Counted from the whole stretch's first letter, positions 2,669 through 63,688 are shown. The stretch is 63,688 bases of DNA, filler included, from Pseudomonadota bacterium (GCA_043820105.1; 6 parts of 6 records of this genome joined end to end with filler, not necessarily neighbours in it), one strand, 5' to 3'. Notes: generated by a model from the sequence alone, not told the origin. Made by a program: numbers and translations.

Positions 2669-2804
2669 TTTATTATTAATGATAAGTCTTTCTATTATAA
2701 CAAAAAGAAAGAAAGAAAGAAAACAACAAATAATTTAAACCTTGAAATATATCCTGTTTTTGATAATAATTTGTTTGTTTATTGATATTATATAAAGAGA
2801 ACCT

Positions 2805-3098
2805 ATGAAGCTCGATGATATACTTAAGATTCTTAAAGATAACTTAAATGAGATTAACAATTATGGTGTTATTAAACTTGGTGTTTTTGGCTCTTTTGTA
2901 AAAAACACATTTTCGCACGATAGTGATATTGATATTGTTGTGCAATTTAAAAAAGGCTCAAAAACATTTGATAACTTCATGGATTTGAAGTTCTATTTAG
3001 AAAAAATATTGAATAAAAAAGTAGATCTTGTGATTTTGGAAGCAATTAAGCCTGATCTTAAAGATGAGATCTTAAAGGATGTAGAATATGCCGCGTAA
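2805..3098 (+). CDS. Minimal nucleotidyltransferase (MNT) antitoxin
   Basis: 97 aa with FGS...DSDIDIVV motif and KKVDLV; overlaps the downstream HEPN gene. Confidence 0.9.
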   Translation: MKLDDILKILKDNLNEINNYGVIKLGVFGSFVKNTFSHDSDIDIVVQFKKGSKTFDNFMDLKFYLEKILNKKVDLVILEAIKPDLKDEILKDVEYAA

Positions 3099-6491: not shown

Positions 6492-7307
6492 TTATGATAT
6501 TGCGGGGATTACTTTTGTGATTAGTTTGATGAATTTTTCGTTTACTTTTTTGCTGACTTCTATGACTTCTTCGTGGCTTGTTTTGCTTGGGTGCACATTG
6601 GTTATGCATGATATGCCTAGTATTTTAAGGCCGCAATGATTAGCGACAATTGTTTCTGGGATTGTTGACATTCCAGCAGCGTCAATTCCAACTGTTTTAA
6701 AAAAATGTATTTCAGCTGGGGTTTCATATGTTGGTCCTGTAAAAGCTGAGTAGACGCCCTCTTTTATATCAAAGCCAAGCTTGCTTGCAACACCTTTTGC
6801 TATATCTCTTAGATCTTTACTATAAACATTTGATTGATCAGGAAAACGAGGTCCAAATCTTTCGTCATTATCCCCAATTAAGGGATTTGTTCCAAATAAA
6901 TTTATATGATCTTTTATTATCATTAAATCTCCAGGTACAAAGCTTGGATTAACACCCCCTGCTGCATTTGTTACAACTAATTTTTCAAGCCCCATTAACT
7001 TAAAAAGCCTGGCAGGAAAAACCACTTTGTCCATATCAGCTGCTTCATAAAAATGAATTCTTCCTTGCATTGCAACTATCGGAAGCTCGTCATTTTGGCA
7101 CACTTTCCCAATTACTAAATTCCCTTTATGGCCAGCTACCTTTGATTTTTGGGGGAAATTTGGAATTTCAGAATAGTCAATAACAACTGAATCATAAAGC
7201 ATATCAGCAAAATTTCCTAAGCCTGAACCAAGAATTATACCAAGTTTAGGTTGTTTATCTAGTTTAGACAAAACATAATCAGCTGCTTCTTTAATTTGAT
7301 CGTACAT
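6492..7307 (-). CDS. punA: Purine nucleoside phosphorylase (trimeric type)
   Basis: GIILGSGLG, QGRIHFYE, TNAAGG, GPTYETPAE and GMSTIPE motifs. Confidence 0.95.
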   Translation of the reverse strand: MYDQIKEAADYVLSKLDKQPKLGIILGSGLGNFADMLYDSVVIDYSEIPNFPQKSKVAGHKGNLVIGKVCQNDELPIVAMQGRIHFYEAADMDKVVFPARLFKLMGLEKLVVTNAAGGVNPSFVPGDLMIIKDHINLFGTNPLIGDNDERFGPRFPDQSNVYSKDLRDIAKGVASKLGFDIKEGVYSAFTGPTYETPAEIHFFKTVGIDAAGMSTIPETIVANHCGLKILGISCITNVHPSKTSHEEVIEVSKKVNEKFIKLITKVIPAIS

Positions 7308-7342
7308 ATTTACTCCTTCCTATGCTTAAATTTAGTCTTTTC

Positions 7343-8635
7343 TTAGTCCTTGCTATTAAGTAAAAAACCTTGGTCTTGAAAGTTTTTTATCATGCTAAGA
7401 GCCTGAACTTTTGGAGCTTTAAATTTTATCACAAGATGTTTATCATCATAAATTTCTTCTATAATTGTTGTAATGGACCTAACCTTATTGGAAATCCATG
7501 CATTCTTAAGATCTATTTTAATTTTATATGAATCAAGAGTTCCTAAGTATTGATTAAAAATCATATCTTTTAACTCATCTATTCCTCTTGCTTTTAAAGC
7601 TGATATTTCACAAGCAGGATGATGCTTTTTTTTGAGACTTTCTATAAAGTGTTTTTGGGAAAGCAAATCACTTTTATTTAGTACATAAATTATAGGTTTT
7701 GAAGCAGAATTAATTTCTTTTAAAACTTTTAATGTTTCTTTAAATTGGTTCTCATAATCTTCATCATTAACATCAATTACATGCAATAATAAGTCTGAGT
7801 CTGAAACCTCTTCTAAGGTAGTATGGAAAGATTCAATAAGTGAATGAGGAAGATTTCTAATGAAGCCAACAGTATCGGAAACTAAGACTCGTGGTCTTTC
7901 TTTGACTTTTAATGATCTGATTTTTGAATCAAGAGTTGCAAAGAGTCTATCTTCTATTAAAGTATCGCAGCCTGTTAAAGCCTTTAAAAGTGTAGATTTC
8001 CCGGCGTTTGTATAACCAACAATAGAAACTCTAAAAACATCCTTCCTTGATGAAGCTCTTGTTTGTTGACCCATTCTAATAATTTTTAACTGGTCATTAA
8101 GGTTCTTTAAGCGTTTTCGAATCATACGTCTATCAAGTTCAAGTTGCTGTTCACCAATACCTCTTAGACCAATACCACCCCTTTGCCTTTCCAAATGAGT
8201 CCAGGCTCTTGTTAGGCGAGGCAAAGCATATAATAGCCTTGCTATCTCAACTTGAGTTTTCGCGGCTTTTGTTTTTGCTCTACCTGCAAAAATATCTAAA
8301 ATTATTTCACTCCACTCCATAACCTTTCTATCAATATACTTTTCAAGATTTTTATGTTGGGAAGGTGAAATGTCATGATTCAAAAGAATAACATCAATAT
8401 CATTTTCTAAAACTATGTTTTTTATTTGCTCTATTTTTCCTTTTCCAATGAATGTTGCAGAATTCACCTTTCCAAGTTTAATAAATAATGCCGCTTTTTT
8501 ATTAAATCCCAGCGTATAGGCAAGACCTTCCATTTCAGCAGCTATTCTTTCATAGGAATAGCTTTTGTTTCCTTCCATGTTTAATTGGATTGTCAATAAT
8601 AAGGCATTTAATTTTTCAGGAGATGTTTTATGCAA
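7343..8635 (-). CDS. hflX: Ribosome-splitting GTPase HflX
   Basis: HLERQRGGIG, GYTNAGKST, LFATLD, DTVGFI and NKSD motifs. Confidence 0.96.
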   Translation of the reverse strand: MHKTSPEKLNALLLTIQLNMEGNKSYSYERIAAEMEGLAYTLGFNKKAALFIKLGKVNSATFIGKGKIEQIKNIVLENDIDVILLNHDISPSQHKNLEKYIDRKVMEWSEIILDIFAGRAKTKAAKTQVEIARLLYALPRLTRAWTHLERQRGGIGLRGIGEQQLELDRRMIRKRLKNLNDQLKIIRMGQQTRASSRKDVFRVSIVGYTNAGKSTLLKALTGCDTLIEDRLFATLDSKIRSLKVKERPRVLVSDTVGFIRNLPHSLIESFHTTLEEVSDSDLLLHVIDVNDEDYENQFKETLKVLKEINSASKPIIYVLNKSDLLSQKHFIESLKKKHHPACEISALKARGIDELKDMIFNQYLGTLDSYKIKIDLKNAWISNKVRSITTIIEEIYDDKHLVIKFKAPKVQALSMIKNFQDQGFLLNSKD

Positions 8636-8638
8636 AGA

Positions 8639-9055
8639 TTATTTTTCAACCTTTTTCTTTGTTGAGGTAGTTTTTTTAGCACTAGCTTTTTTTGTTGTAG
8701 TTTTCTTTTTTGCTGCTGGTGCTTTTTTTTCTGTTGTCTTCTTTGCCTCAGGAGCTTTGGTGCTTCCTTGAACTTTTTGTTTTACATCTTTAGATTTAGC
8801 GATAACCATTTTTTTCACATCATTAATTTCATTAACAACTTTTTTAACCGTATCTATTTCTTTTTCATATTTGGTTTTTAATGTTTTTAATTCTTTGTCA
8901 TATTTATTCGCAACATTCTTTACAAGTCTTTCAAGCTCAGCAACTGAAGGCAGGTTTAGCTTTTTAATTTTTTTATCAATATTTTTTTCAAAGAATTCAG
9001 TTACAAATCCTTTTAATTTTTTAATATCAATATTTTTATGTTTTAAATCAACCAT
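8639..9055 (-). CDS. Phasin/PhaF-like coiled-coil protein with Lys/Ala/Thr-rich tail
   Basis: LNLPSVAELERL motif; histone-H1-like C-terminus (KKAPAAKKKTTTKKASAKK); GGAGG RBS. Confidence 0.55.
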   Translation of the reverse strand: MVDLKHKNIDIKKLKGFVTEFFEKNIDKKIKKLNLPSVAELERLVKNVANKYDKELKTLKTKYEKEIDTVKKVVNEINDVKKMVIAKSKDVKQKVQGSTKAPEAKKTTEKKAPAAKKKTTTKKASAKKTTSTKKKVEK

Positions 9056-9302
9056 TTAAGCCCTCCAAAAAAAAGTAGGTTTTTAATTTTTATTGAAAAG
9101 ACAATATTAATAAATTATCATTTTTGCAAGAAAATAAGAGTCCTTAATATTTCGAAAGTAAAGCAATAAGAGTAATAAAATAAAAGTCCCAGTACTATGC
9201 ACAGGTTTTTATAGGTAATTTTACTTTATTTTTATCGCATGATTTCAAAAACTTATGGATTTATGTTTGACAAAGGCATTATTATTGAGTTATAAGTTCA
9301 AA

Positions 9303-9432
9303 CATCATAATAAAGGAAATAAAAGTTTTTTTAATAGCACTCCCAAGTTAGTCGGTTTTACTGGCTAACGAAGATGCTCCCCAACTCTACCCTTTTATCC
9401 TGCAACATGGTTTTGTTGCAGGATTTTTTTTT
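9303..9432 (+). ncRNA. Candidate orphan small RNA
   Basis: TTGACA (9267-9272) N18 TATAAG promoter, internal hairpin GTTAGTCGG/CTGGCTAAC, intrinsic terminator, no credible ORF. Confidence 0.4.
9397..9432 (+). terminator. Intrinsic terminator
   Basis: 11-bp stem ATCCTGCAACA/TGTTGCAGGAT followed by a T run. Confidence 0.85.
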
Positions 9433-9557
9433 GAGATTATTCCCAAATTGATGTCTAGCTGCGTTGGCCGATTAAAATTTAATTTCGCCGTACAGCAGTA
9501 CGCCTCAAATAAATTTTAATCGACCGCCTTGCTATACAGCAATTTGGAAATAATCTC
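9433..9557. repeat. 125-bp palindromic repeat element
   Basis: GAGATTATTCCCAAATTG...CAATTTGGAAATAATCTC ends, nested arms CGATTAAAATTTA/TAAATTTTAATCG, central CGTAC..GTACG. Confidence 0.85.
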
Positions 9558-9592
9558 GAAAATGTTTTCAAAATAGTTTCATTAAGAATTAC

Positions 9593-9735
9593 TAATTAGT
9601 TTCCATCCCGAAATAGCGATTTCCCCGATTGTCATCCTGAATTTATTTCAAGTTCCCTTTGGTATAACTGCATCTGGGGGATGCTGAAACAAGTTCAGCA
9701 TGACGAAAAGTGAATTTTGAGATGAGAACTAATTA
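9593..9735. repeat. REP-like palindromic element (GTCATCCTGAA...TTCAGCATGAC type)
   Basis: Inner GTCATCCTGAATTTATTTCA / TGAAACAAGTTCAGCATGAC and outer TAATTAGTT.CATC / GATG.AACTAATTA; a related half-site lies at 43161-43184. Confidence 0.8.
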
Positions 9736-9758
9736 ATTTTAATCAGCAAGGAAACTGT

Positions 9759-10151
9759 TTATCCGATGAACTCTTCCATGATTGTAGTCTCAGTGATAAG
9801 ACCAACGAGTTTGCCTTTTTCAACAACAGGAAGACCTGAGATTTTATGAGAACTCATTATTTCCGCAGCTTCTTTAAATGTTGTATTTGGAGAGATTGTT
9901 TTCACATCAGTGGTCATAACCTCTTTTACTTTAATCTTTTTTAAAAGCTCAATTTTACTGAAACTCTCATCCAGGCTTAGCATAAGGTATTTTAGAATAT
10001 CCTTGTTAGCAATTATTCCCACCAGAACATCTTTATCAACAACTGGCAATAACTTCAAATCACCTTTTGAAAGAAAATCAAAGGCTACAGAAATAGATTT
10101 TTTAGGAGTTATTGTTGTGATTTTTTTTATCATCCTGTCTTTAACTTTCAT
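9759..10151 (-). CDS. CBS domain pair protein (AcuB-like)
   Basis: Two CBS repeats (LPVVD..LVGII; ISGLPVVEKGKLVGLITE); start placed at MKVKDRM behind a GGGGA RBS. Confidence 0.88.
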   Translation of the reverse strand: MKVKDRMIKKITTITPKKSISVAFDFLSKGDLKLLPVVDKDVLVGIIANKDILKYLMLSLDESFSKIELLKKIKVKEVMTTDVKTISPNTTFKEAAEIMSSHKISGLPVVEKGKLVGLITETTIMEEFIG

Positions 10152-10227
10152 GGTATTTCCCCATTTTATTTTTTCTTTAATAATTTCTACCTTGCTCAAT
10201 TGATACAATCAAGAGAAAAAACAATAA

Positions 10228-10803
10228 TTAATTGCGTTTTGATCTTTTTATTTTTTTATTTTGTTTTATTGCTTTACTCTTTTTAGGCTTGGCTTTATTT
10301 GCTTTGTTGTCAATTTGGTCTTTCATCTTTTGTCTAAATTTAATTCTTTCTTTTAATGGAAGGTTTTGCATTTTTCTATAGTTCTGAATAATATTTTGCT
10401 TTTGCTCAGGAGTCATATTTTTAAAAACTTCCAGATTTCCTTTAATTCTTTCTTTTTCTTTAGGTGAAAGATTTTGCCAAATCTCGTTTCTTTTAATTAA
10501 AATCTTTTTTGTATTTAAGGGCAAAGATGCGAAATGTTGATAATTATCCCTGAACATTCTCTGCTTATATGCTGGCAAATTATTAAACTTATTTAAATTA
10601 GCTTTTAATAAATTTTTTTCAGCTGTTGTAAGCTTTGCAAAAACTTTATACTTTTCTTTTAATTCATTTTTTGCTTCAGCACTTAAATTATTGTACCTTT
10701 CAACATCTTCACCAAGTCCTTTATTTGTAGCATCTTCCTGTGAAGATAAGTTTGCAAAGGAAAGAAAAATTAAAATTATTATGATTTTTATACCTTTACT
10801 CAT
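10228..10803 (-). CDS. DUF3106-like secreted helical-repeat protein
   Basis: Signal peptide and ~18-aa repeats (F/W..L.P..K); last gene of the ECF sigma cluster. Confidence 0.75.
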   Translation of the reverse strand: MSKGIKIIIILIFLSFANLSSQEDATNKGLGEDVERYNNLSAEAKNELKEKYKVFAKLTTAEKNLLKANLNKFNNLPAYKQRMFRDNYQHFASLPLNTKKILIKRNEIWQNLSPKEKERIKGNLEVFKNMTPEQKQNIIQNYRKMQNLPLKERIKFRQKMKDQIDNKANKAKPKKSKAIKQNKKIKRSKRN

Positions 10804-15073: not shown

Positions 15074-17617
15074 ATGCTTAAAAAAACTCTTCCAAATGGT
15101 CTCAGATTAATCTCTAAAGAAATGAAAAACTCTCCTGTTACTTCAATACAAATTTGGGTTGAAACAGGTGCTCTTTATGAAAACGCAAAAACCAGTGGAA
15201 TAAGTCACTTTATTGAACATATGTTTTTCAAAGGCACAAAAAAAAATGCTCCTGGTGCTATGGCCCAATATATAGAAACTCTAGGTGGAAATATAAATGC
15301 TTTTACTTCATATGACTATACAGTTTATACCTTATCTATCCCATCAAGACACACTGAAAAGGGTTATCAAATTCTCGCTGATGCTTTTTTAAACTCCACA
15401 TTTGCCACAAACGAACTTGAAAAAGAAAAGAAAGTGGTAATTGAAGAAATATCAATGGGTAATGATGAACCTGATAGCATCGTAAAAAAAGAACTTTTCA
15501 AACAGGCTTTTGCAACTCATCCTTATGCAAGACAAATTATAGGTACAAAAGAAAACATTATTAGTTTTAAAAGAAAAGATTTAATAAATTATATTGCTAA
15601 CAACTATGTGCCATCTAACTGTATTATAGTTACAGTTGGGAATCTTCCACATGAAGATGCTGAAAAGCTAGCTAAAAAATATTTTTCAAAATTAGAAGCT
15701 AAACCATCTAAAAACAAACTTTATTACTTAGATAAACAAACAAAAACAAAAAAGATATCTTGCCTTACAAGAAATATAAATGAAGCCATTTTTACAATCG
15801 GTTTTCAGATACCTGGGATTTTACATGAAGATCTTTTTGCTCTTGATGTGCTGGCTCTTATTTTAGGTCAGGGAAATACATCCAGGTTATATAAAAAATT
15901 AAAAACTGAAGATGGCCTGGTTAACAACATCGCAGCTCATTCATTAACCTTAAAAGAAAATGGACTTTTCCTTATTGATGCAAAACTTGTATCAAAAGAT
16001 CTAAAAAAGGTCATTGCAGAAGTCTTTAAAATCTGTCAGGAGTTAAAGGAAAAGCCTTTAGGAAGTGATGAGATCCAAAGGTCCTTAATTGTTACTGAAA
16101 GAAATATTATTTTCCAATCAGAAACAGCTCAAGGTATTGCCAGGCAAATAGGTTCATTTGAGGCTTTGCTAAAAAATCCTGAATTCAATAATGTATATAT
16201 TGAAAAGTTAAGACAAATTACGAGTGATGATATTTATAAAGTAGCTAATAAATATTTGAATTATGAAAATATGAATATAGCGCTTATTGCAAAAAAGGAT
16301 AAATTTTATCCAACAGAAAGTTTCATTAAATCAAAAGCCCAAATACTAGCAAAGAAACAACAAATTTCACTTAATACTGGAAATGGACAACTTATTAGAA
16401 CAAGTTCTCCAAATGGCATAAGATATATTTTTAATTACAACCCAAGTCATCCAATTGTTTCATGCAAAAGCTTCTTTACTGGTGGATTAAGATATGAAGA
16501 TGAGAACAATAATGGAATTTCACACCTCATGAGCGCTCTGATGCTTAAGGGAACTAAAAAAAGAAGTGTAAATGATTTAGCAGAAGAAATAGTTGCTGCC
16601 GGAGCTTTTTTAAAATCTGAAGCAGGAAGAAATTCAACAAGTGTTGGCATAGATATTTTATCCAGAAATTTTGAAAAGGGTATTGAAATCCTTTCTGATG
16701 TTATCAGAAACTCAATATTTCCTGAAAAAGAACTAATAAATGAGGCAAAGCAAGCCCTTTATGCAATTCGCTCAATAGATGACCACCCTACACAAGCTGC
16801 TTTTAAGTTTTTCTTAAGAAAAATGTATGGAAATCACCCCTATTCCATGGACATTTTGGGAAGTGAAAATTCTTTGCCTATGCTTAATCAAAATGCAATA
16901 AAGGACTACCATAAATCTTTAATTACGCCTGATAATATGGTGCTTGCAATATCTGGTGATATCCATCCTGATAAGGCTTTTGAAATTTGTCAAAAGTACT
17001 TTTCTGGATGGAAACTGATAAAAACCTTACACCCAACCCTTAGGGAAATTCCTAAAAAATCGAATGCTGAAGTGTATGAAAAAATATTAGATAAAGAACA
17101 AGCTCACGTTATTCTTGGTTTTGATGGTGTTTCTTTTAATGATAAAAGAAGATTTTCACTTGATATCTTAAACTCAATCCTAACTGGTCAGGGAGGACGT
17201 CTTTTTCAAAGGCTTAGAGATGAGTTAAGTCTAGCATACTCAGTTGGCTCAATGAATGTTGAAGGAATTGAACCGGGATATTTGGCCATTTACATAGCTT
17301 GTGCTCCAGAAAACATAGACTTATCTATTAAGGAAATTAAGAACATCTTGAATTCAATAGCCACAAAAGGTGTAAGTGATAAAGAAATCGAAAGAGCCAA
17401 AATGTATATTATTGGAAACTATGAAAATGAATTACAACTAAATTCTGTGAAAGCTATTCACTTAGGCTTCAATGAATTATATAATATGGGATATAAAAAC
17501 TTAAATGATTATTCAGAAAGAATACTAAACCTTTCAAATGCAAATATAAGATCAACTATTGGAAACTTTTTAAAGGGTGATTATATAATTTCAATTTTGA
17601 AGCCACTGGTTAAATAA
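15074..17617 (+). CDS. M16 family zinc protease (pitrilysin/PqqL-like)
   Basis: HFIEH (HxxEH) and NAFTS motifs; the second half is an inactive repeat with RLFQRLRDELSLAY. Confidence 0.92.
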   Translation: MLKKTLPNGLRLISKEMKNSPVTSIQIWVETGALYENAKTSGISHFIEHMFFKGTKKNAPGAMAQYIETLGGNINAFTSYDYTVYTLSIPSRHTEKGYQILADAFLNSTFATNELEKEKKVVIEEISMGNDEPDSIVKKELFKQAFATHPYARQIIGTKENIISFKRKDLINYIANNYVPSNCIIVTVGNLPHEDAEKLAKKYFSKLEAKPSKNKLYYLDKQTKTKKISCLTRNINEAIFTIGFQIPGILHEDLFALDVLALILGQGNTSRLYKKLKTEDGLVNNIAAHSLTLKENGLFLIDAKLVSKDLKKVIAEVFKICQELKEKPLGSDEIQRSLIVTERNIIFQSETAQGIARQIGSFEALLKNPEFNNVYIEKLRQITSDDIYKVANKYLNYENMNIALIAKKDKFYPTESFIKSKAQILAKKQQISLNTGNGQLIRTSSPNGIRYIFNYNPSHPIVSCKSFFTGGLRYEDENNNGISHLMSALMLKGTKKRSVNDLAEEIVAAGAFLKSEAGRNSTSVGIDILSRNFEKGIEILSDVIRNSIFPEKELINEAKQALYAIRSIDDHPTQAAFKFFLRKMYGNHPYSMDILGSENSLPMLNQNAIKDYHKSLITPDNMVLAISGDIHPDKAFEICQKYFSGWKLIKTLHPTLREIPKKSNAEVYEKILDKEQAHVILGFDGVSFNDKRRFSLDILNSILTGQGGRLFQRLRDELSLAYSVGSMNVEGIEPGYLAIYIACAPENIDLSIKEIKNILNSIATKGVSDKEIERAKMYIIGNYENELQLNSVKAIHLGFNELYNMGYKNLNDYSERILNLSNANIRSTIGNFLKGDYIISILKPLVK

Positions 17618-17666
17618 ATTTTGGATTTTGAATTTTGAATTTAAGACATTCTGAATTCTGCTTAAG

Positions 17667-19745
17667 CTAATTCATCAACTCATTTACAAAGGTTTCGTAT
17701 TGCGCTCGCTTATTTGTATCAGTTTCCAAATCAATGTATTTTCTTAAAGAATAAACAGCTTGATCAACTTCCCCTATTTCTGCGTAAATTACACCCATTT
17801 CTTGAAGAGCTTCTTTATTATTACCATCCATATCTTTTACTCTATTATAAAAAGATAATGCATTTGCATAATCATAAAGCTTACCATAGGATCTTCCAAC
17901 CTTAAGATAGATCAACTTTTCAGATGGTTTTTCTTCCATTGCTTTTAAATATTTTTTAATAGCATCTTTATATTTAGCTTTCTTATAAAACTCATCACCT
18001 TGAGCAATGTAAGTTTGTGCAGTTATTTTCTCTGTCTTAATTATATTACTTTTTACTGGTTCTATCTTAGAATCTTTTGAAACAAGGGCTGAGTTTTGAC
18101 CTTCAACAGATTCAATATATTTTTCAACAATCGTTGCAGCAGGATCATTAGGAGCTAGAACTATAAATTTCTTATAATTTGTAATTGCTTCTTCAGTATT
18201 TCCCTGTTCCTTAAGAATGTCTCCTTTTTCCTTAAAAATATTAGCAGTATCTACAACATAATCATCAAAACGAGAAAGTTCATTTAAAGCTCCTTCATCA
18301 TTCTTTGTTGATCTTTCAAGTTTTCCAAGTTTTAAAATTAAATCAGGAGTTCTGAATAAATTAGATCTTACTTTGGAAAGCTCAAAAAATGCTTTATCCA
18401 AATCACCACTATTAAATGCTGAGTTTCCCCTGGTTAAATGAACAACATCAGCGATCATTGTAAGGGCACCTGCATTTTCTAAATTTTTTGTTACTTTATT
18501 CATTACATTTACGCCAATCATAAGTAATATAACCATCATAAGAATAACTCGTCTTGGATTTAAAAATTTTCTTTTAGAAGCAATATTTCCAATAATTGTT
18601 CTTTCAGGAGAATCTTCATCTTCTTGTTCAAAATCAGACAACTTACCAACGATAGTGGCAGCATTAGCAGGGTTAAATCCCTGAGCTTGCGGTGCGTGTT
18701 GATTATTCTGCATATATTTAGCACGGATCCTAGGATCTGAAGGCTGAGTACAAACTTTAGATATTTGTGTTGCCTTGTTTGTTTGTGTAAACTGAGAAAT
18801 AATTTGAGTTACAAACTTTGCAAGATCCATTGCAACAATGGACTTATAGTTTTCAGGATTAACAAATTCAATTAGATCAAGCTGAAATTCTCTTGCTGAC
18901 TGATATCTTTTATTAGGATCCCTATCTATCGCCTTCATTATTATTTTCTCAAGCTCTTTTGGAAGTGCAGGATCAATTTTTCTTGGAGATTTGGCCTTAA
19001 ACTTCCTGAAATCATCTCTAAATGAAGAAGTTAAATCCAGATTCATCATTTTTTGACCAGTTATTATTTCATATAACATAACTCCAACTGAATACAAATC
19101 AACTCTTTCATCAATATTTTTTCCAAAAACCTGTTCTGGAGCTATATATCCAAGTTTTCCTTTTAACATTCCAGTTTTTGTAAAACCAGATTTGCTTGTT
19201 TCTTTTGCTATTCCAAAATCAATAATTTTAATATGACCATCAAGTGAAACAATTACATTATCAGGAGTAACATCTCTGTGAATTATTCTTGATTCTTCTT
19301 TATCATCAGCAACTACATTATGCAGATAATCAAGACCCTTTAGAACCTTAACAACAATATGTATTGCAAGTGGAACTGGAAAACGGATTTTCAAATCTTC
19401 AGCTTTGTCTAAAATCACTCTCATGTTTTTGCCAGCAATATATTCAAGGGCTATAAAATAAGTATTATCAACTTTTCCAAAATCCAGAATCTTAATGATA
19501 TTTTCATGATTAAGCTGTGTCAAAATCTTTGCTTCTTCCAAAAACATTCTTTTGAAATTATGGTCTTCTGCCTGATCAGGCAAAATCTTTTTAATAATTA
19601 TCTTATTCATTGTCCTTTTGCAAACAGCTGTATAGATCTCAGCCATACCGCCAACGGCAATAAGATTTGATAATTCATATTTTTGAGAGAATTCTGATGC
19701 TGTATTCGTTTCATGCTCATATAAAAGTATTTCCTGATGTGGCAT
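17667..19745 (-). CDS. Ser/Thr protein kinase with TM helix and extracytoplasmic TPR repeats
   Basis: GGMAEIY, HRDVTPDN, DFGIAK and GYIAPEQ motifs; TM helix near aa 400; C-terminal TPRs. Confidence 0.92.
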   Translation of the reverse strand: MPHQEILLYEHETNTASEFSQKYELSNLIAVGGMAEIYTAVCKRTMNKIIIKKILPDQAEDHNFKRMFLEEAKILTQLNHENIIKILDFGKVDNTYFIALEYIAGKNMRVILDKAEDLKIRFPVPLAIHIVVKVLKGLDYLHNVVADDKEESRIIHRDVTPDNVIVSLDGHIKIIDFGIAKETSKSGFTKTGMLKGKLGYIAPEQVFGKNIDERVDLYSVGVMLYEIITGQKMMNLDLTSSFRDDFRKFKAKSPRKIDPALPKELEKIIMKAIDRDPNKRYQSAREFQLDLIEFVNPENYKSIVAMDLAKFVTQIISQFTQTNKATQISKVCTQPSDPRIRAKYMQNNQHAPQAQGFNPANAATIVGKLSDFEQEDEDSPERTIIGNIASKRKFLNPRRVILMMVILLMIGVNVMNKVTKNLENAGALTMIADVVHLTRGNSAFNSGDLDKAFFELSKVRSNLFRTPDLILKLGKLERSTKNDEGALNELSRFDDYVVDTANIFKEKGDILKEQGNTEEAITNYKKFIVLAPNDPAATIVEKYIESVEGQNSALVSKDSKIEPVKSNIIKTEKITAQTYIAQGDEFYKKAKYKDAIKKYLKAMEEKPSEKLIYLKVGRSYGKLYDYANALSFYNRVKDMDGNNKEALQEMGVIYAEIGEVDQAVYSLRKYIDLETDTNKRAQYETFVNELMN

Positions 19746-23393: not shown

Positions 23394-23493
23394 NNNNNNN
23401 NNNNNNNNNNNNNNNNNNNNNNNNNNNNNNNNNNNNNTTAATTAATTAANNNNNNNNNNNNNNNNNNNNNNNNNNNNNNNNNNNNNNNNNNNN
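23394..23493. other. Contig linker (N44-TTAATTAATTAA-N44)
   Basis: Artificial all-frame stop spacer; identical linkers at 43016-43115, 45848-45947, 48132-48231 and 56802-56901. Confidence 0.99.
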
Positions 23494-42929: not shown

Positions 42930-43160
42930 ATGAAATTCCCCACGAATATTTCAAAACGGTTTACACCAGTTAAGCAATAATTTAAAGTAATGCTATAATG
43001 AAGTCAAGAAATAAGNNNNNNNNNNNNNNNNNNNNNNNNNNNNNNNNNNNNNNNNNNNNTTAATTAATTAANNNNNNNNNNNNNNNNNNNNNNNNNNNNN
43101 NNNNNNNNNNNNNNNAACTATTTGTAACAAATACTTTATCAGTCTGATAATAACACTTTA

Positions 43161-45847: not shown

Positions 45848-45947
45848 NNNNNNNNNNNNNNNNNNNNNNNNNNNNNNNNNNNNNNNNNNNNTTAATTAAT
45901 TAANNNNNNNNNNNNNNNNNNNNNNNNNNNNNNNNNNNNNNNNNNNN

Positions 45948-48131: not shown

Positions 48132-48231
48132 NNNNNNNNNNNNNNNNNNNNNNNNNNNNNNNNNNNNNNNNNNNNTTAATTAATTAANNNNNNNNNNNNN
48201 NNNNNNNNNNNNNNNNNNNNNNNNNNNNNNN

Positions 48232-56783: not shown

Positions 56784-56981
56784 GCAAAAGTTATGTTCAT
56801 GNNNNNNNNNNNNNNNNNNNNNNNNNNNNNNNNNNNNNNNNNNNNTTAATTAATTAANNNNNNNNNNNNNNNNNNNNNNNNNNNNNNNNNNNNNNNNNNN
56901 NATGTTCATTAAGATAGTGCATGATTTAATATTTTACCATTAACATCAGAATATTTCTTTCAAAATCCACTTGCTGTTTAT

Positions 56982-58658
56982 TCACTCTATCAGCGCCTCC
57001 GCCATGCTAATCATCGATTTACTATAAATCGGCCAACGGCCATCCGAAAGTTCGGATGTAAAATGAGGGCGGTTTTTTGATGAAAGTCTTTTTGTTTGAA
57101 GACATTGTGACCTTTCTTGTTGTTCTAAAAATAAAAAATTAAAGGGGGCGAAAAAATCAAAAGAAAAAAGCGATTTGTTGGCGATTTTGATGTTTTTAAA
57201 AAGCAGTTGCAGCACTTGCTTCTTGGTCAAATTATCTATCGTTTTCGCTCTTGGATTATACCCTTCAATGAATTCAGCAACACGGTTTTTATAGTTCTTA
57301 GAGTTCTCTCTTTCAATTGCTCTAACTTCTTGCAGAGCAATGCGTTTCTTTAAATCGTCTTCTTCGGTTTTTAGCGTTTCGCTTTTCTCTCTGTAAACTT
57401 CTTCGCTTAATAAATTATCCAAATACGCATCAGTTAATTTCGATTGTTTTTGAAGCACTATTTTAAGCTTTTCCTGTAGTTTTTCCAACTCATTTTTTGA
57501 GATTTGCTCAATAGCCGGGGATTCCAGTTCAGTCACTGTTGTCCATCGGCTCGATTTTAGTTTATTATTTTTGAGCAAAGTCTCTAAAAGTTCAGCTACC
57601 TGAGATTCGATAATATCTGCTTTTACACATTTATTTTTACATTGGATAAAGCTTGTCTGCGGGCCTCCGCATCTATAATATCTCTGCTTAAATCCTGTTC
57701 TATGATTAGAGATTGAAGAAATTCCTAAATATTTATGATTGCACTTTGTGCAATAAAGAACCCCGGAAAGAGGATACTCACTTGCCCTTCTTTTCCAAAC
57801 AATCTTTTTCTCTTTCAACTTTTCCTGAACAATCGCAAAATCTTCATCACTTATCAAGGGTTGATGCCTGCCCTGTGCAACAATAATCTTCTCCTGTGGA
57901 TTTTTAATATATCTAAAACCTCTTTTTGTTTTTTTGGTTTTATCATACCTTGATTTATTCCAAACAAGCTTACCTGTATAAATTCTATTCTTTAAAATAT
58001 CACTGATAAATTTAGTTCCCAGAATATTATCGTTACGAGTCCTATGGCCTTTTTTAGTCAGATATTCCGTAATACTTCTAATACTTCTGCCGGAAATATA
58101 CATTTTATAAATAGTTTTTACTAATTCAGCTTCTTTTTCGTTTACTTCCAAAAGCTTCTTTTCTTTGTTATAGGCATAACCGCAAGGAGCAAATCTTGCG
58201 CCCTGCCAATTACCTGCTTTTATTCCTTTAACCATTCCGGGGAAAACTCGTTCCGCTAATCTATTTCTTTCAAACTCTGCGAAACTGCCTAACTGTTGAA
58301 GCATTAATTTTCCAGCAGAAGTTGTAGAGTCAAAAGGTTCCGTAGCTGATTTAAAACCAACCTCATAAGAATATAACTTATCCATAAGATTAAGCAAATC
58401 CCTTAAGTTTCTGCTGAACCTGTCAATTTTATAAACTAAAACAAGATCAAATCTTTTTTGTCTAGCATCTTCAAGAAGTTTCTTTAAGGCAGGTCGTTCA
58501 AGCGAATAGCCGCTTATTCCATCATCAGAATAAACTTTATAAATTTCATATCCCTCACGCTCAGCAAAAGATTCTAGATATTCTCTTTGTACTTCTAAGG
58601 AATATCCTTCTTTAACTTGGTCTTCAGTTGAAACTCTTATGTAAATTGAAACTCTCAT
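56982..58658 (-). CDS. Large serine recombinase (resolvase + recombinase + Zn ribbon + coiled coil)
   Basis: YIRVSTEDQ catalytic Ser, DDGISG, RPAL, DRFSRN, AEFER, CTKC..YYRC..C. Confidence 0.95.
   Translation of the reverse strand: MRVSIYIRVSTEDQVKEGYSLEVQREYLESFAEREGYEIYKVYSDDGISGYSLERPALKKLLEDARQKRFDLVLVYKIDRFSRNLRDLLNLMDKLYSYEVGFKSATEPFDSTTSAGKLMLQQLGSFAEFERNRLAERVFPGMVKGIKAGNWQGARFAPCGYAYNKEKKLLEVNEKEAELVKTIYKMYISGRSIRSITEYLTKKGHRTRNDNILGTKFISDILKNRIYTGKLVWNKSRYDKTKKTKRGFRYIKNPQEKIIVAQGRHQPLISDEDFAIVQEKLKEKKIVWKRRASEYPLSGVLYCTKCNHKYLGISSISNHRTGFKQRYYRCGGPQTSFIQCKNKCVKADIIESQVAELLETLLKNNKLKSSRWTTVTELESPAIEQISKNELEKLQEKLKIVLQKQSKLTDAYLDNLLSEEVYREKSETLKTEEDDLKKRIALQEVRAIERENSKNYKNRVAEFIEGYNPRAKTIDNLTKKQVLQLLFKNIKIANKSLFSFDFFAPFNFLFLEQQERSQCLQTKRLSSKNRPHFTSELSDGRWPIYSKSMISMAEALIE
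57041..57197 (-). repeat. Left arm of a 157-bp inverted repeat (inside the recombinase 3' end)
   Basis: Reverse complement of 63393-63549 with one mismatch; outer end is CATCCGAA-AG-TTCGGATG. Confidence 0.95.
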
Positions 58659-58670
58659 ATTTTAAATTCA

Positions 58671-59174
58671 TTAATTCTGGCAACTAGTTGTAATCATAGA
58701 AGTAACAATATCGTTTAATAATCTTCCCCTAAAATTCACAAGCACAATATTTCGATGTTTATTAATTTCTGCAATGCATTCTTTAGAAATAAATCCTTCC
58801 TCCTGAGGAGCATAGATTATTAGAGCGGTATCATCTTTTTTTATTAATAGGATCTCACCCAAACAAGAAGATATGGTTTTCCAATGAGCAAGAAATAGAG
58901 AAAAATTTTCTGCTTTTCTTAATTCTCTAGTAGTAATTTGAGTTATATTACTTTCACTAAACAGTTTAGAATCAATCAAAAGACTACTTAAAGAAGAATA
59001 CGCATCATTTTCTGCAAATATAGCAATCTTTCTAGAAGCCAATCCCTTCCCCAATCTAAGTAATGCTGGCGATATTCCTTTAACCCATCGACATATTTCA
59101 ACAATGACAGCAAAAATTACAATGACTGTCGACACGTAACCAAGAAAATTCAAAATTTTCAAAACAGTATCCAT
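58671..59174 (-). CDS. Putative CBASS effector: N-terminal TM helix plus small Rossmann-like domain (possibly NARF-like)
   Basis: Start at MDTVLK behind GGAGG (167 aa); TM helix, then alternating beta/alpha segments (KIAIFA, LFLAHW, ALIIYAP, VLVNFRGRLLND); directly follows the CD-NTase. Confidence 0.6.
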   Translation of the reverse strand: MDTVLKILNFLGYVSTVIVIFAVIVEICRWVKGISPALLRLGKGLASRKIAIFAENDAYSSLSSLLIDSKLFSESNITQITTRELRKAENFSLFLAHWKTISSCLGEILLIKKDDTALIIYAPQEEGFISKECIAEINKHRNIVLVNFRGRLLNDIVTSMITTSCQN

Positions 59175-59196
59175 AATAACCTCCCAGTCAATAAAA

Positions 59197-60072
59197 TTAA
59201 GAAGCGAATTTATTTCCAAATAATTTTCTCCATAATTTAACAGATTCATCTGTATCTTCAGATTTTAAAGCTTCACTAGCGATATCTAAACTATTTTTTA
59301 TTTCACTCATAAAGCTTTTGAATTCATAAAAACTCCACCGTTTTGCGACATTAACAGATGGATATCCCGGATCATTAATGACTGGCACTTTGCCTAATTC
59401 TAAATACGATTTGTAAGTACTATAAATATTATAGAAAATATCTCTTATCGCAACGCCGTACGATTCGGGTTCTGATAAAATACATTGAGACAATAAACTT
59501 TCAATTATGTAAGAATTTGGCTTAGAACTTTCGCTAGACAATCTATCACGCCAAAACTTAATTATTTTAATTAAATGGATATAATATCCTTCTGTATTTT
59601 TATTCCTATCAGTCGAAAACTCAATCTGATTTTTAGGATGCGTAGCTACCCAAGTCTTAGCTTCTCGATCAGGAATCCATAACGGTCCAGAACGATTCGA
59701 GATTGGAGTAGAAGGAACAACATCCAAACTAAATCCGTTTTTATGAATCACATTAACTGATCTTCCCTGAGGTTTTATTTTAGAGTATTGATTCTGGAGG
59801 GAAGCCTGCAACCAAGCTAAAACAACCTCAGGAGCTGTATTATTTCGATCTAAGTCAATTATAAGAATAATATCAACATCCTTAATGTCATTAATCGCTG
59901 TATCTCTAGCATAAGAACCAGACAAAAAAGTCTCTGGATTGGCTTTTGAAATCTCATCATCTTTAGCTAAAAAATCTCTGATTTCTTCATGTGATTTTTT
60001 AGCTAATTTTACATCTTTATAATCCGGCTCGATATTTTTTAGTAATCCTTTAAAATATGTTGTCATTTCCAT
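59197..60072 (-). CDS. cGAS/DncV-like nucleotidyltransferase (CD-NTase, SMODS)
   Basis: LSGSYARDTAI..IKDVDII, QGRSV, LDVVP, LWIPD...W..THP, IIKFWR, SYIIE and WRKLFG.KF motifs; start at MEMTT behind GGAGG (291 aa). Confidence 0.9.
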   Translation of the reverse strand: MEMTTYFKGLLKNIEPDYKDVKLAKKSHEEIRDFLAKDDEISKANPETFLSGSYARDTAINDIKDVDIILIIDLDRNNTAPEVVLAWLQASLQNQYSKIKPQGRSVNVIHKNGFSLDVVPSTPISNRSGPLWIPDREAKTWVATHPKNQIEFSTDRNKNTEGYYIHLIKIIKFWRDRLSSESSKPNSYIIESLLSQCILSEPESYGVAIRDIFYNIYSTYKSYLELGKVPVINDPGYPSVNVAKRWSFYEFKSFMSEIKNSLDIASEALKSEDTDESVKLWRKLFGNKFAS

Positions 60073-60076
60073 TGTT

Positions 60077-61372
60077 TTAATCCTCCTTAATTTGAATATC
60101 TGTCGGCAGCACTGAACTCTCTGGAAATGCATCTTCATTAGGTTCAAGACCGTACTGCTTTCTTAATGCACCTTCAAAGTTGCCACAAGCTGGACATTCT
60201 TCATCTTTACAGAAATCCACCCCATACCAACGTAAAACAGTCATGGCTGTTGCTTCATCACTTAATGGCGGCCATGATGCATATTGTGTATTTGGCTCAG
60301 GTCTATTTATCCAAAAATACCAATTTGCTGAAAGATCTTTATCCAATATATGCAATGTTGAATCTTTATTTTTTATTAACTCCTGCAAAGCTAACTTTGA
60401 AGTCATGGTTCCAATAGGCTCAACATCTATAGATAATCCTGGTTCTACAGGCACATTTCTATCAGAATATGCTATATCACTAGCATTGGTATTAGATGAA
60501 ACCTCTTGATCTGTCTCTACATCAGGCATACCTAATAAAAAACAATGATAACAGGCTGTTTCCGTTGGATACACTCGCAGAATCTGTCCACCATATGCTC
60601 TACGGAAAGCTCCGGGAAAAAACATTGTCTTTTTTTGCTCCAAACCAATTCTATTGATTAAAAGTTTACTTTCTCGATTATCGGTAGCACATATAATTAA
60701 ATCAACACTTTTCGCTATTTCTAACAACTTAGTTCTATTTTGTTCATCTGCTTTTATAGGATAGGTAGATACTTTAACCTTAGGATTCTTTTCTAATAAT
60801 AAATCTCTAGCAACTACTACTTTTTTTCTCCCAATGTGAGACAACCCAGCCTGATGTCGACAAATATTACCAACTTCAAGCCTATCAGGATCTACTAAAT
60901 GAAAATTGCCAACCCCACATTTAACTAAATCAATTGAAATATGAATACCACCAGTCCCTAAGCCAAATATTAAGACCGAAGTATCTTTTAATAAATTTGT
61001 CTCAATAAAGCCTCGCTGTCTAGCGGAAAGTTCATGTCCTATATCAACAATACAGGTTTTTATTTCCTCCTTTTCCTCTGGGCCTTTATTGATATACGAT
61101 ACTACTTTATATTTATCACCAGAAGGAGCTATATAATCGTATTTTTTGGTATCATCAACCTGTATTAATTGCACTACCAGAAAATACTCACTGCTATTTG
61201 TTTCTCCAATCACCACAGCGCCATATACTTCCTTTGGGTTTTGGAATATCCCTAACGAGTTTAATGAATAAGCATCTCCTTCATCCCATTCAGAAAAAAT
61301 ACATGGCAAAACCTTATTATCATTCAGTTTCTTCCAATTAACATTTAAATACTCAGACGGTATTGTGATCAT
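60077..61372 (-). CDS. E1-like ThiF adenylation enzyme with a ~110-aa N-terminal extension
   Basis: GLGTGG, DPDRLEVGNICRH, CATDN, and Zn ligands CYHC and CPAC. Confidence 0.9.
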   Translation of the reverse strand: MITIPSEYLNVNWKKLNDNKVLPCIFSEWDEGDAYSLNSLGIFQNPKEVYGAVVIGETNSSEYFLVVQLIQVDDTKKYDYIAPSGDKYKVVSYINKGPEEKEEIKTCIVDIGHELSARQRGFIETNLLKDTSVLIFGLGTGGIHISIDLVKCGVGNFHLVDPDRLEVGNICRHQAGLSHIGRKKVVVARDLLLEKNPKVKVSTYPIKADEQNRTKLLEIAKSVDLIICATDNRESKLLINRIGLEQKKTMFFPGAFRRAYGGQILRVYPTETACYHCFLLGMPDVETDQEVSSNTNASDIAYSDRNVPVEPGLSIDVEPIGTMTSKLALQELIKNKDSTLHILDKDLSANWYFWINRPEPNTQYASWPPLSDEATAMTVLRWYGVDFCKDEECPACGNFEGALRKQYGLEPNEDAFPESSVLPTDIQIKED

Positions 61373-61548
61373 TGTCCAAACATATCCGCTTCTTCTGCAG
61401 TAATATTCAAGCCTGGTGCAGCAGAATCTGCAGATGAAACTGCTACTATTGTTTTTTTAGTCTTATCATAAACCAACTTATTACGTCCTGGTCGACGTGC
61501 AGCAATTGCTTGCATTGCTTCACGAATTTTTTCTTTTTGAGAATCCAT
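61369..61548 (-). CDS. 59-aa protein missing from the ORF track; candidate ubiquitin/Pup-like modifier
   Basis: MDSQKEKIREAMQAIAARRPGRNKLVYDKTKKTIVAVSSADSAAPGLNITAEEADMFGQ*; GGAGG..AGGA RBS, starts 7 nt after the E2 stop, and its TGA overlaps the E1 ATG (ATGA). Confidence 0.8.
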   Translation of the reverse strand: MDSQKEKIREAMQAIAARRPGRNKLVYDKTKKTIVAVSSADSAAPGLNITAEEADMFGQ

Positions 61549-61555
61549 ATTAATC

Positions 61556-62008
61556 CTATTCCTCCCTCATAGTCGCTACAAAATCATTTATAGTTTGTCC
61601 CGTAGCCAAGTGTTGCTCAAAAGCTTCAAACCATAACATTATTTTTAACATAACTTTATTCAAAGTAATACCACTATGCCATCGACTTTGTCTCCAATGA
61701 CAGATTTGGACTTCCCTGCTACTGCTAGGTTCTAATGTATGCATCTTATGAGATACACCATAACTAACTATTGATGTCCCATTATAGCCAATGAGTGGAT
61801 TTGGCTTATGCACATAAACAGAAGGACATTGATAAGGATAATTAGTCGGCAATCGACACCAAACCGTATAGCTCCTTCCACCACTAGAATTATAATCACC
61901 AAAAATATAATAAAAATTTCCTTGGGGGTAATACTTTACAAAGTATTGTGACATCCCATCTCTTTTTAAAATCTGATTTTCTAGATTTAATCTATCCAAC
62001 AATGTCAT
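61556..62008 (-). CDS. Stand-alone prokaryotic E2 (UBC-fold) protein
   Basis: LPTNYPYQCPSVYV (PxxYPxxxP), H...QICHW...W..GITL..V..KI.LW with a putative catalytic Cys; start at MTLLDRL behind AAGGAAG (150 aa). Confidence 0.8.
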   Translation of the reverse strand: MTLLDRLNLENQILKRDGMSQYFVKYYPQGNFYYIFGDYNSSGGRSYTVWCRLPTNYPYQCPSVYVHKPNPLIGYNGTSIVSYGVSHKMHTLEPSSSREVQICHWRQSRWHSGITLNKVMLKIMLWFEAFEQHLATGQTINDFVATMREE

Positions 62009-63248
62009 TGTCTCTTCCTTTAAGCTTATGATAACAATCAACAATCTGGTCTAACTTTAAAAGTGATAAACTGTTATTCTTCACTTCAAGCTCCGTTGAT
62101 TTTCCTATAGCTCTATCCAGCCAATCAACTTGTAATATTTTATGTGGCCACTTATCATCTATAGCAAATGCAATATATTGCTCATTTTTAACCGGCACAA
62201 CAAAAATATGTCCAAATGAGGTGTGATACACTTCTATATCTTTCGACAATATTTGTCTAAGATCTTTTATTGCATTTAATATCGTCCTTTCTGATATTAT
62301 TTTTAGAGAATTTCCCTCATTAGCAATAACTCTACCAAGTGGCTCTACTGGAATTTTAATATTATCTAGATTAAATAGCGAATAGGAGTGCAAATTTTGT
62401 TCCGACATTAAATTACTTTCAACTAAAATTTCTCTAATAGGACTCACTCCTTTTAAAACTATTAGGCACGCATCAACAGGACTAGTATCAGGAAAATTCT
62501 GATAAGCAAAAGGATTAATGCGAACTATACGTTCTTTTTTAGAAACGTTAACAAAAGAAACAATAAACTCCGCCATTTCATTAAAATTATTCCTATTAGC
62601 TAACCGCTTTATTCTACTGATATCACCAGAGCTAGGAGACTCTAGCCCAAGATTATGATGTGAATGCCAGTCACCAAAGTATCTTAGCCCCCATTTATCG
62701 CTTAATTCTGTACTAATTTTAACCAGATAATCTACATCTAGTCTAAAATGTGCATTATCCCTAATAGCTTTTGGTCCAGCTTTTGTAGCTAGGTAAATAA
62801 TAGGAATGTCACCCCAAATTCCAAATAAATCACCGCCAGTTTCAACTTTCCAGGACGAACTTTCTAAAGCTATAGCCTGCAACTCAGATTCATAAATAGC
62901 TAAAACAGTCGATGGGGAACCCCTTTTTACTTTACCTATTTCAAGTTCTTCAACAACTTTAACTGGATCAGATTGAGTTAAAACAAATTTAAATATTTTT
63001 GAGAAAACAGGGTGCTTTTCAATCCAGGTTTTAACATTCTTTGGCATTTCTAAATTATCCTGATTTAAAATATCTTTTGAAATATTAAGCAATTCAGATA
63101 TTCGCTGAATAAGATCTTGACTTGGTAAACGACGTCCTTTCTCAATATCAACCAAATAAGCAGCTGAAATTTCTAATTTTCTAGCAAACTCCCTTAAAGA
63201 AATTTTATTTTTTATTCGTTCTTTTTTTATTTTTTCACCAATCTGCAT
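61992..63248 (-). CDS. XRE-HTH / JAB (MPN+) metallopeptidase fusion with an extra C-terminal domain
   Basis: N-terminal XRE HTH (SLREFARKLEISAAYLVDIEKGRRLPS); JAB motif ETGG...GDWHSHHNLGLESPSSGD. Confidence 0.88.
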   Translation of the reverse strand: MQIGEKIKKERIKNKISLREFARKLEISAAYLVDIEKGRRLPSQDLIQRISELLNISKDILNQDNLEMPKNVKTWIEKHPVFSKIFKFVLTQSDPVKVVEELEIGKVKRGSPSTVLAIYESELQAIALESSSWKVETGGDLFGIWGDIPIIYLATKAGPKAIRDNAHFRLDVDYLVKISTELSDKWGLRYFGDWHSHHNLGLESPSSGDISRIKRLANRNNFNEMAEFIVSFVNVSKKERIVRINPFAYQNFPDTSPVDACLIVLKGVSPIREILVESNLMSEQNLHSYSLFNLDNIKIPVEPLGRVIANEGNSLKIISERTILNAIKDLRQILSKDIEVYHTSFGHIFVVPVKNEQYIAFAIDDKWPHKILQVDWLDRAIGKSTELEVKNNSLSLLKLDQIVDCYHKLKGRDNDIVG

Positions 63249-63288
63249 GGGGAAATGTTATCACTGTTAGCTAACGATGTCAACATTT
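63249..63288 (-). promoter_or_regulatory. Leaderless sigma70 promoter overlapped by a 36-bp palindromic operator
   Basis: Minus strand TTGACA-N17-TAACAT (extended TG)-N6-ATG; palindrome AAATGTTatCActGTTAGCTAACgaTGtcAACATTT at 63253-63288. Confidence 0.8.
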
Positions 63289-63392
63289 TTATTTACTAGG
63301 GTGTTAAAAGCTCAGAATAAGTCTACGGGTGGGCGGGGAATATTTGCTTTTTCTGCGTCAAAGACGTGCGGACTGCCTATAAGGCTGGACGC

Positions 63393-63549
63393 AAAAACAT
63401 CAAAATCGCCAACAAATCGCTTTTTTCTTTTGATTTTTTCGCCCCATTTAATTTTTTATTTTTAGAACAACAAGAAAGGTCACAATGTCTTCAAACAAAA
63501 AGACTTTCATCAAAAAACCGCCCTCATTTTACATCCGAACTTTCGGATG
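63393..63549 (+). repeat. Right arm of the 157-bp inverted repeat (duplicate of the recombinase 3' segment)
   Basis: Encodes KNIKIANKSLFSFDFFAPFNFLFLEQQERSQCLQTKRLSSKNRPHFTSELSD, identical to the recombinase C-terminal segment. Confidence 0.95.
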
Positions 63550-63688
63550 ACCTCTTGCTGAGGCTCTACAATGTGCTTTTTTCTTACTTTTCTACCTTGA
63601 ATTGACTTAATGATGCACCGCCCCGCCGTCGCTCCCTGAACGGTCGCTTTGGCGGGGCTCCGTGAGTGATGTTGCACCGTTCGCCTCA

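Follow-up and report, generated by a model that had tools for sequence, protein, structure and literature searches.

Why should the end of a recombinase gene recur, inverted and almost letter for letter, on the far side of the defence genes that lie beside it? The question is raised by a 63,688-nt stretch of DNA from a Pseudomonadota bacterium (GCA_043820105.1; here called the window), in which the gene for a large serine recombinase (LSR) and an adjoining defence operon are bracketed by an inverted repeat. An earlier note on this DNA had read the arrangement as a self-contained cassette that can flip. Comparison with complete relatives makes it probable that the region is instead one segment, the LSR-proximal one, of a larger integrative defence island that holds an internal, inverted and intact attP-like attachment site; the present data favour a stable single orientation.

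The inverted repeat, its probable crossover point and the recombinase tail

Positions 57041-57197 and 63393-63549 are reverse complements over 157 nt with one mismatch (G/T near 57146); looser ends give a repeat of 169 nt at 96% or of 160 nt at 98.75%. At its outward end the left arm reads CATCCGAA-AG-TTCGGATG and the right arm CATCCGAA-CT-TTCGGATG, an 18-nt palindrome with 8-nt arms, and the left arm is contained in the recombinase open reading frame (ORF) at 56982-58658 on the minus strand. The length of the repeat, the palindromic ends with 8-bp arms and an AG centre, and the position of the left arm inside a serine recombinase gene had all been described in the earlier note, and recomputation bears them out; the further copies of the palindrome that it had suggested looking for do not occur in the 3.8-Mb genome when up to two mismatches are allowed, and neither outer flank has a second copy there. 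In the window, the perfect palindrome coincides with the codon string Y-I-R-T-F-G-C of miaB, the target gene described below, and at the same place relatives carry an imperfect one (4-7 of 8 positions). A chance origin of the repeat is excluded, as it recurs in independent assemblies.

The recombinase has the domain make-up of an LSR, with a resolvase domain (PF00239, residues 5-151, 6.7e-41), a recombinase domain (PF07508, 7.3e-21) and a zinc ribbon (PF13408, 6.3e-9); its closest solved relatives are the TP901-1 integrase (catalytic domain, 2.1e-28) and SPbeta YokA/SprA (residues 41-491, 2.6e-18). The repeat unit, called X here, can be read in two ways. In the frame of the LSR it encodes the last ~50 residues of the enzyme; in another frame it offers a sequence resembling a ribosome-binding site (AAGAAAGG), an ATG (57105) and ~21 codons, M..FYIRTFG, that imitate the N-terminus of MiaB (end K-V-Y-I-R-T-F-G).

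The point of exchange can be narrowed down by comparing the left junction (attL), the internal site and the right junction (attR) in two relatives, G329 and G381, where exchange is confined to the last two nucleotides of the repeat, TG on the recombinase strand. The crossover would thus lie at this outermost TG and not at the centre of the palindrome; the central AG, previously taken as the 2-bp core, is ruled out by the same comparison, while the proposal that the repeat ends are recombination sites in inverted orientation is supported. With the crossover within the LSR ORF, the tail of the enzyme depends on the type of junction and has 2-3 residues at miaB, ~18 (T_N) at N', the flank beyond the right arm, and ~20 at M*, the flank beyond the left one.

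The present tail of the window LSR, GRWPIYSKSMISMAEALIE (GRWPIYSK...), is encoded by M*. Over the right arm, a 79-aa ORF (63366-63605) repeats the last ~50 residues of the LSR and then diverges; the first 54 nt of the N' arm, read in the LSR frame, specify the alternative tail T_N, DLLLRLYNVLFSYFSTLN (DLLLRLYNVLFSYF..., DLLLRLYN...), of 17-19 residues, with similar tails in eight relatives. In this frame the ratio of non-synonymous to synonymous polymorphism (pN/pS) is 0.53, against 1.09 and 0.87 in the other two. Together with its presence on 17 homologues, this indicates that the alternative tail is a conserved class under coding constraint. The change of C-terminal tail upon exchange had been predicted in the earlier note, and both tails read as stated there. 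A stand-alone small ORF at the second arm was considered and rejected, 4 of 10 loci having no start codon there.

Among 109 homologues, 58 have the short miaB-type tail, 17 have T_N, 16 have a GRW/DRW-type (M*-type) tail, which is also found in L009 and G198, and 18 are other or truncated; the first four full-length T_N-tailed recombinases were found with the 79-aa ORF as query. When viral contigs were searched with a T_N-tailed query, only distant recombinases matched (27-36% identity). Further conserved tail classes follow the core in other loci, namely DEW...FLKxLFQxEASRST, DKWFFYGQRLF... and GRCLPYRHSMADLAEAL... (L006/L059, L110 = G148:C6, L104 = G175:C4, L097 = G194:C1); these sit on long contigs with no adjoining miaB, and G194:C1 carries two recombinases of the family 17 kb apart on one strand.

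A probable larger island and its miaB target

The survey covered the window and 51 related loci, most of the loci without a repeat being fragments that miss one side. Relatives of the LSR at 52-68% identity lie on contigs assigned to Omnitrophota, Planctomycetia, Elusimicrobia and unclassified bacteria. Five of the first six genome loci have an inverted copy of the final 136-176 nt of the gene beyond the opposite end, 99-100% identical, and the sixth retains a 51-nt remnant at 80%. Altogether the repeat is present in the window and in 15 of the 51 related loci; five contigs (L012, L018, L020, L023, L029) begin and end inside it, as assemblers do at repeats. The inner boundary of the repeat falls at the same nucleotide in different elements, and the distance between the arms ranges from 1.9 kb (the LSR and one small ORF) to 8.2 kb. 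Within elements the arms are 96.8-100% identical (10 elements), against 48-85% for X between elements; the two X copies therefore evolve in concert.

To provide context, 20 loci on long Omnitrophota contigs were fetched, and miaB directly follows the LSR in 17 of them. The three closest to the window (59-61% identity to its LSR; contigs of 127, 146 and 449 kb) have perfect repeats of 176-178 nt. Extended leftward, each of these three shows, 10, 21.6 and 17 kb away, a second copy of the N sequence in opposite orientation, 92-94% identical over 365-373 nt to the first and preceded by a short native miaB start (...IKTFG, then stop). The order in the three complete elements, all from Omnitrophota, is thus native miaB 5' end/N' (attL), 10-22 kb of cargo, inverted N/X, cargo with the LSR, and X/miaB (attR), with attL and attR sharing the 2-nt TG core; the window contig holds only the attR-type and internal sites. 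The first cargo segment includes type I restriction-modification, PLD+SNF2 helicase, SIR2_2 and DUF1016 genes and sensor kinases, and none of 40 ORFs scanned in the cargo of complete elements is a conjugation or virion gene. Candidates for a directionality factor are a small MerR/helix-turn-helix (HTH) ORF just inside the spare site in G381 (L095:6270-6485) and, by eye, an excisionase-like ORF in L003; none was seen in the window.

In most relatives the codons of X are in frame with miaB C-Q-M-N-x-x-D-S-E. The TFG/CQMN junction lies 3' of the LSR in L001, L005, L007, L011, L015, L017, L019, L024, L027, L029 and L032, and also in L003, L004 and L026; miaA and hflX come after miaB in L001 and L003. 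In these relatives the island supplies the gene that it interrupts with a new 5' end, and the corresponding fusion in the window is a pseudo-site (TFGWPLADL, then stop). Two further loci (L045:2528-2696 and L046:10001-10169) have, directly 5' of miaB, a relic X together with what is left of the LSR C-terminus, and no recombinase gene; the miaB 5' end donated by the lost element has been retained.

From these comparisons, we propose that the LSR island inserts in the first codons of miaB, at T-F-G/C-Q-M-N, and that X would be the P arm of its attachment site, doubling as the end of the LSR and as a replacement ribosome-binding site, start codon and ~21 codons for miaB. The copy of X at the recombinase end would form the attR-type junction (X, TG, flank), and the other copy, joined to N', would be an intact attP-like site (X, TG, N') kept inverted inside the element. 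This spare site may serve to flip the segment, to let the island integrate in reverse orientation or for some other purpose. In the window the element would sit at M*, a miaB-like pseudo-site, and not at the host's own miaB, which is intact, with its native start (MKMKKVYIKTFGCQMN...), on another contig (C95 ~17426-18739, outside the part of C95 in the window) and is preceded there by a run of GAACAAG-type short repeats. The first cargo segment of the window element and its attL would exist and have escaped assembly or binning.

The N element that borders the spare site is conserved between elements over ~330-370 nt, GC-rich and rich in hairpins with compensatory changes. An alifold consensus of 12 sequences recovers only 22 pairs, in which G.U pairs number 19 on the strand co-directional with the LSR and 3 on the other; this bias points to an RNA, or a single strand, of the LSR's polarity that heads towards the crossover site. 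Rfam has no family for either flank or for the N element, and it lends no support to the idea that N is a tmRNA, an RNase P, a group II intron or an omega/bridge-like RNA; the idea that the N flank is the coding 3' end of a host gene fails on stop codons in L027 and L003. In two variants (L048 and L051) N is internally deleted between two TTCGGCTTT repeats.

Several observations weigh against the proposed island or against its generality. The flank on the recombinase side in the window is not miaB; it may be a host pseudo-site or an arm of a stacked second element. The attL, first cargo segment and chromosomal neighbours of the window element were found neither in its own genome nor in 40 relatives, and the full layout is consequently transferred from relatives whose LSRs are 59-61% identical. 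No excised circle and no empty miaB site of the same strain was observed. A strict sigma-70 consensus scan of X gave no promoter, so that miaB may be read through from the recombinase gene instead of from a promoter supplied by X. Finally, 16 of the 20 long-contig loci, those more distant (42-52% identity), have no repeat within 9 kb, and the spare site is therefore a feature of a sub-clade. The contig ends, each exactly 139 nt beyond the repeat, would be explained by a de Bruijn graph with k=141, in which a unitig stops k-2 = 139 nt past the point where the flank also joins a different arm; the alternative joins would be an empty or attL-type junction for the M* flank and, for N, the attL of the element itself. 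The same spacing agrees with a crossover at the TG. The account is made plausible by G180, in which the two N' copies are identical for their first ~250 nt.

The M* flank has a counterpart in L022, where the same type of flank is followed by three ORFs (L022:11659-13246; by eye their products are secreted, membrane hydrolase-like and GIY-YIG-like), then by another miaB-5' mimic and intact miaB; this interval may be a small recombinase-less element that uses the same site, and M* may likewise be an arm of another element stacked in tandem. A single public run matched (X1; a 0.09 share of words), from which only fragments of the contig were recovered. It holds the M* flank in a 5,330-nt contig at a depth of 12.8, which diverges 12 nt into the palindrome, and pieces of the element at depths of 2-4; its fragments on the contig contain no joints informative of orientation, and coverage and holes were not used as evidence.

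Site-specific exchange at TG cannot account for the identity of the X arms, for which we can offer no idea other than gene conversion between the inverted copies. In the same elements the N' arms form a mosaic and are only 92-94% alike.

Whether the segment flips, and other explanations

Does the LSR flip the 6.5-kb segment in place, swapping its own tail and the 5' context of the flanking genes, as had been suggested? The inverted sites and the change of tail stand; the second orientation lacks comparable support, and we regard flipping as possible but unlikely. The two sites are inverted with identical X arms and a shared TG core, X at both ends would leave the 5' end of the flanking gene intact in either orientation, and the alternative tail, carried by 17 of the 109 homologues, is coding-constrained without a start codon of its own in the 4 of 10 loci mentioned above. 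Two contigs even look like the flipped form: in L050 the inner flank S is joined through X to miaB, with 100% identity over 243 nt to L007 (LSR-X-miaB), and in L031 LSR-X is followed by 8 nt of N' type. However, L050 is a low-coverage contig of 1,005 nt and L031 ends 8 nt past a perfect repeat, and either could be mis-threaded. Against these two weak contigs, the LSR adjoins miaB or M* in 12 of the 12 loci in which both arms and flanks are resolved (the window, L001, L002/L022, L003, L005, L015, L019, L026, L027, L092, L093, L095), which include the contigs of 127, 146 and 449 kb, so that the two orientations expected of a serine invertase were not found. Excised circles, at their junctions, and tandem arrays are further possible sources of a T_N tail, and L094 has such a relic LSR-X/N' junction in direct orientation. 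The sites here are moreover of the P/P' or P/B' type, and if they follow phiC31 and Bxb1, where recombination is limited to attP with attB and, given a directionality factor, to attL with attR, attP would not pair with attR.

A variant of the idea, which we hold to be doubtful and give somewhat less credit than flipping as such, is that the spare site makes the LSR and the defence segment a flippable, self-limiting module under RNA control by the N element. The LSR would be active with its ~18-residue N' tail, lose this tail on exchange with the miaB-side site and lock, and such locking would explain the single orientation in assemblies; the ~330-nt N element, transcribed towards the crossover and antisense to the tail codons, would regulate the flip.

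It is improbable that the arms bound a cassette-exchange or terminal-inverted-repeat transposon, with the X-bounded segment mobile and swapped between landing pads N and miaB. The cargo between the arms does vary (1.9-8.2 kb) while the N and miaB flanks are constant, and within one element the N' arms (92-94%) are less alike than the X arms (100%), which fits different histories. Yet simple site-specific recombination between inverted sites cannot yield a circular or free form, the attL of complete elements is canonical and includes the native miaB start, as expected of whole-island integration, and no exchange event was observed.

Less probable still is that the second arm has no function and was left behind by a second integration in opposite orientation or by a tandem array in decay. 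Decayed and stacked arrangements exist, as seen in L094, in the relic X of L045/L046 and in the N deletions of L048 and L051. L094 (G063:C19, oriented copy; ~2600-3058, 7139-7527, 8930-10600) is a stacked, decaying array beside miaB, in the order relic LSR end-X/N' (direct), 4 kb of cargo, inverted N/X, split LSR gene, X/miaB; its cargo includes a metallo-beta-lactamase-fold protein that in L027 lies inside the repeat. A relic would however diverge, and 10 elements have arms that are 96.8-100% identical, with 3 others at 100%, although X itself varies widely between elements; its inner boundary is at the same nucleotide family-wide, and the window and most relatives keep the N' tail frame intact. 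The second arm, which the earlier note had allowed might be a relic, is accordingly read as a maintained spare attP-like site. The chance that the second arm and the junctions were made by an assembler or by chimeric reads at the palindrome, the other alternative raised there, is negligible: the repeat lies 139 nt from both ends of a short contig and several related contigs start and end inside it, but the same inner and outer boundaries appear in independent assemblies from several phyla, including the three contigs of 127-449 kb, and both outer flanks are themselves conserved sequence classes. The concerted arms and the recurring architecture together count against misassembly and decaying relic alike.

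Cargo, surroundings and known systems

The segment of the island present in the window carries, upstream of the LSR and with all genes on the minus strand, an operon resembling a cyclic-oligonucleotide-based antiphage signalling system (CBASS); the family matches thereby give a name to the defence cargo noticed earlier (Table 1). Cyclase and effector are both present. In comparison with Cap2/Cap3 of CBASS type II, the E1 part is a protein of its own and the JAB protein carries an N-terminal XRE HTH; by position, two small ORFs could be the expected ubiquitin-like protein and E2, which is a guess. Just 5' of the HTH-JAB gene, a palindrome (63253-63288, 22-nt arms) overlaps TTGACA...TAACAT and, read by eye, is likely the operator and promoter of the operon.

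Table 1. Coordinates of the features discussed (window positions unless a locus is given).
Feature	Position	Strand	Remarks
Outer flank M*, degenerate miaB-5'-like arm	56902..57040	-	encodes LSR tail GRWPIYSKSMISMAEALIE
Large serine recombinase (LSR), 558 aa	56982..58658	-	Ser10 in RVSTEDQ
Crossover dinucleotide, inferred	57041..57042	.	TG on recombinase strand; attL/internal site/attR comparison, G329 and G381
Repeat arm X_a, P arm of attR-type junction	57041..57197	-	last ~50 recombinase codons and MiaB-like mini-ORF
CBASS-type effector with one transmembrane segment	58671..59249	-	PDLC00664 1.5e-60
CD-NTase / SMODS cyclase	59197..60147	-	PF18144 4.9e-28; PDLC00822 1.1e-84
E1-like ThiF-domain protein, 431 aa (E1 part of Cap2)	60077..61372	-	matches only E1 half of E1-E2 models
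Two small ORFs, 59 aa and 162 aa	61369..62044	-	no family match
XRE-type HTH fused to JAB domain (Cap3-like)	61992..63248	-	PF01381 9.7e-13; PDLC00891 5.8e-10
Inner flank S of spare site	63249..63392	.	first ~30 nt conserved between elements
Repeat arm X_b, P arm of internal inverted attP-like site	63393..63549	+	same mini-ORF, 63485-63550, ...YIRTFG then stop
Start of conserved N' arm	63550..63688	+	54 nt tail-coding, then GC-rich structured element cut by contig end
N element copies in relatives	L015:705-1086, L019:1995-2374, L027:6950-7331, L042:652-1060, L022:8010-8394
Whole contig C100 (C100:1-6787)	56902..63688	.	6,787 nt, stand-alone; contains the entire finding
N linkers	23394-23493, 43016-43115, 45848-45947, 48132-48231, 56802-56901

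The window consists of six contigs of a 113-contig draft genome (C84, C87, C93, C94, the end of C95, and C100) joined by N44-TTAATTAATTAA-N44 linkers; a feature that seems to cross a linker is therefore not contiguous in nature. At the end of C95 (56736-56783), a terminator-like hairpin with 22-nt arms, 95% complementary, and a 4-nt loop lies 3' of an ATPase-like ORF.

Serine-integrase elements such as SPbeta (SprA/YokA), TP901-1, A118, phiC31, Bxb1 and SCCmec (CcrAB) share the architecture of the enzyme, and in them too a coding gene serves as the target, attL and attR surround a 2-nt core and the att site lies next to the recombinase gene. Unlike these elements, the present family keeps a second, intact and inverted attP-like copy inside; its crossover lies within the LSR ORF, so that the tail varies with the junction; its P arm encodes a replacement 5' end for the target gene; and its P' arm is a conserved structured element of ~330 nt. 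In invertible systems (Hin, Gin, Cin with the P1 C segment, PinQ), too, inverted repeats enclose a segment that adjoins a serine recombinase gene, and the crossover sites lie where the repeats end; in P1, the long inverted repeats of the C segment carry cix sites at their outer ends. In contrast to the small (~190 aa) invertases with a C-terminal HTH, the enzyme here is a 558-aa LSR, and each repeat arm is at the same time an arm of an attachment site in an integrative element. The yeast 2-micron plasmid, which uses FLP and FRT sites within 599-bp perfect inverted repeats, belongs with another recombinase family; like it, the predicted excised circle would carry two inverted sites dividing two unique segments.

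Replacement of a target's 5' end has a counterpart in the dusA-specific islands, in which tyrosine integrases of the DAI family act on the start of a tRNA-modification gene, whose 5' end is exchanged for island sequence, as far as the accessible part of the report describes them (PMC4482086). The two cases are alike in the replacement itself and differ in enzyme and target, a serine recombinase and miaB here against a tyrosine integrase and dusA there; the enzyme in the window is accordingly no DAI-family integrase, and the same part of that report mentions no internal inverted att copy. An att site inside a gene, with recombination altering the C-terminus of the product, is described for the integration-dependent immunity of mycobacteriophage BPs and its relatives (PMC4557955, accessible part). 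There, by that account, the gene is that of the repressor and the enzyme a tyrosine integrase; here it is the recombinase's own gene, and the effect is a prediction from sequence. A literature search, with subscription journals outside its coverage, found no natural serine-integrase element with an internal inverted attP or with miaB as its target.

Serine integrases are major tools of genome engineering, and the usual view is that each of their natural elements has a single attP. The family described here departs from this picture by its second, inverted and sequence-homogenised attP, an ORF that runs across its own crossover, the repair of the target's 5' end and a long structured flank. It is also common: 64 of the 401 genomes sampled from one phylum, that of L005, carry homologues of the LSR, several other phyla have related loci, and the elements ferry defence systems that include CBASS, restriction-modification and SIR2. 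For the bacterium in the window, the practical consequence is that this contig represents just a portion of a larger island. For the family, if the spare site controls orientation, activity or stacking, it would represent a new mode of serine-integrase regulation and of building defence islands at a single hot spot.

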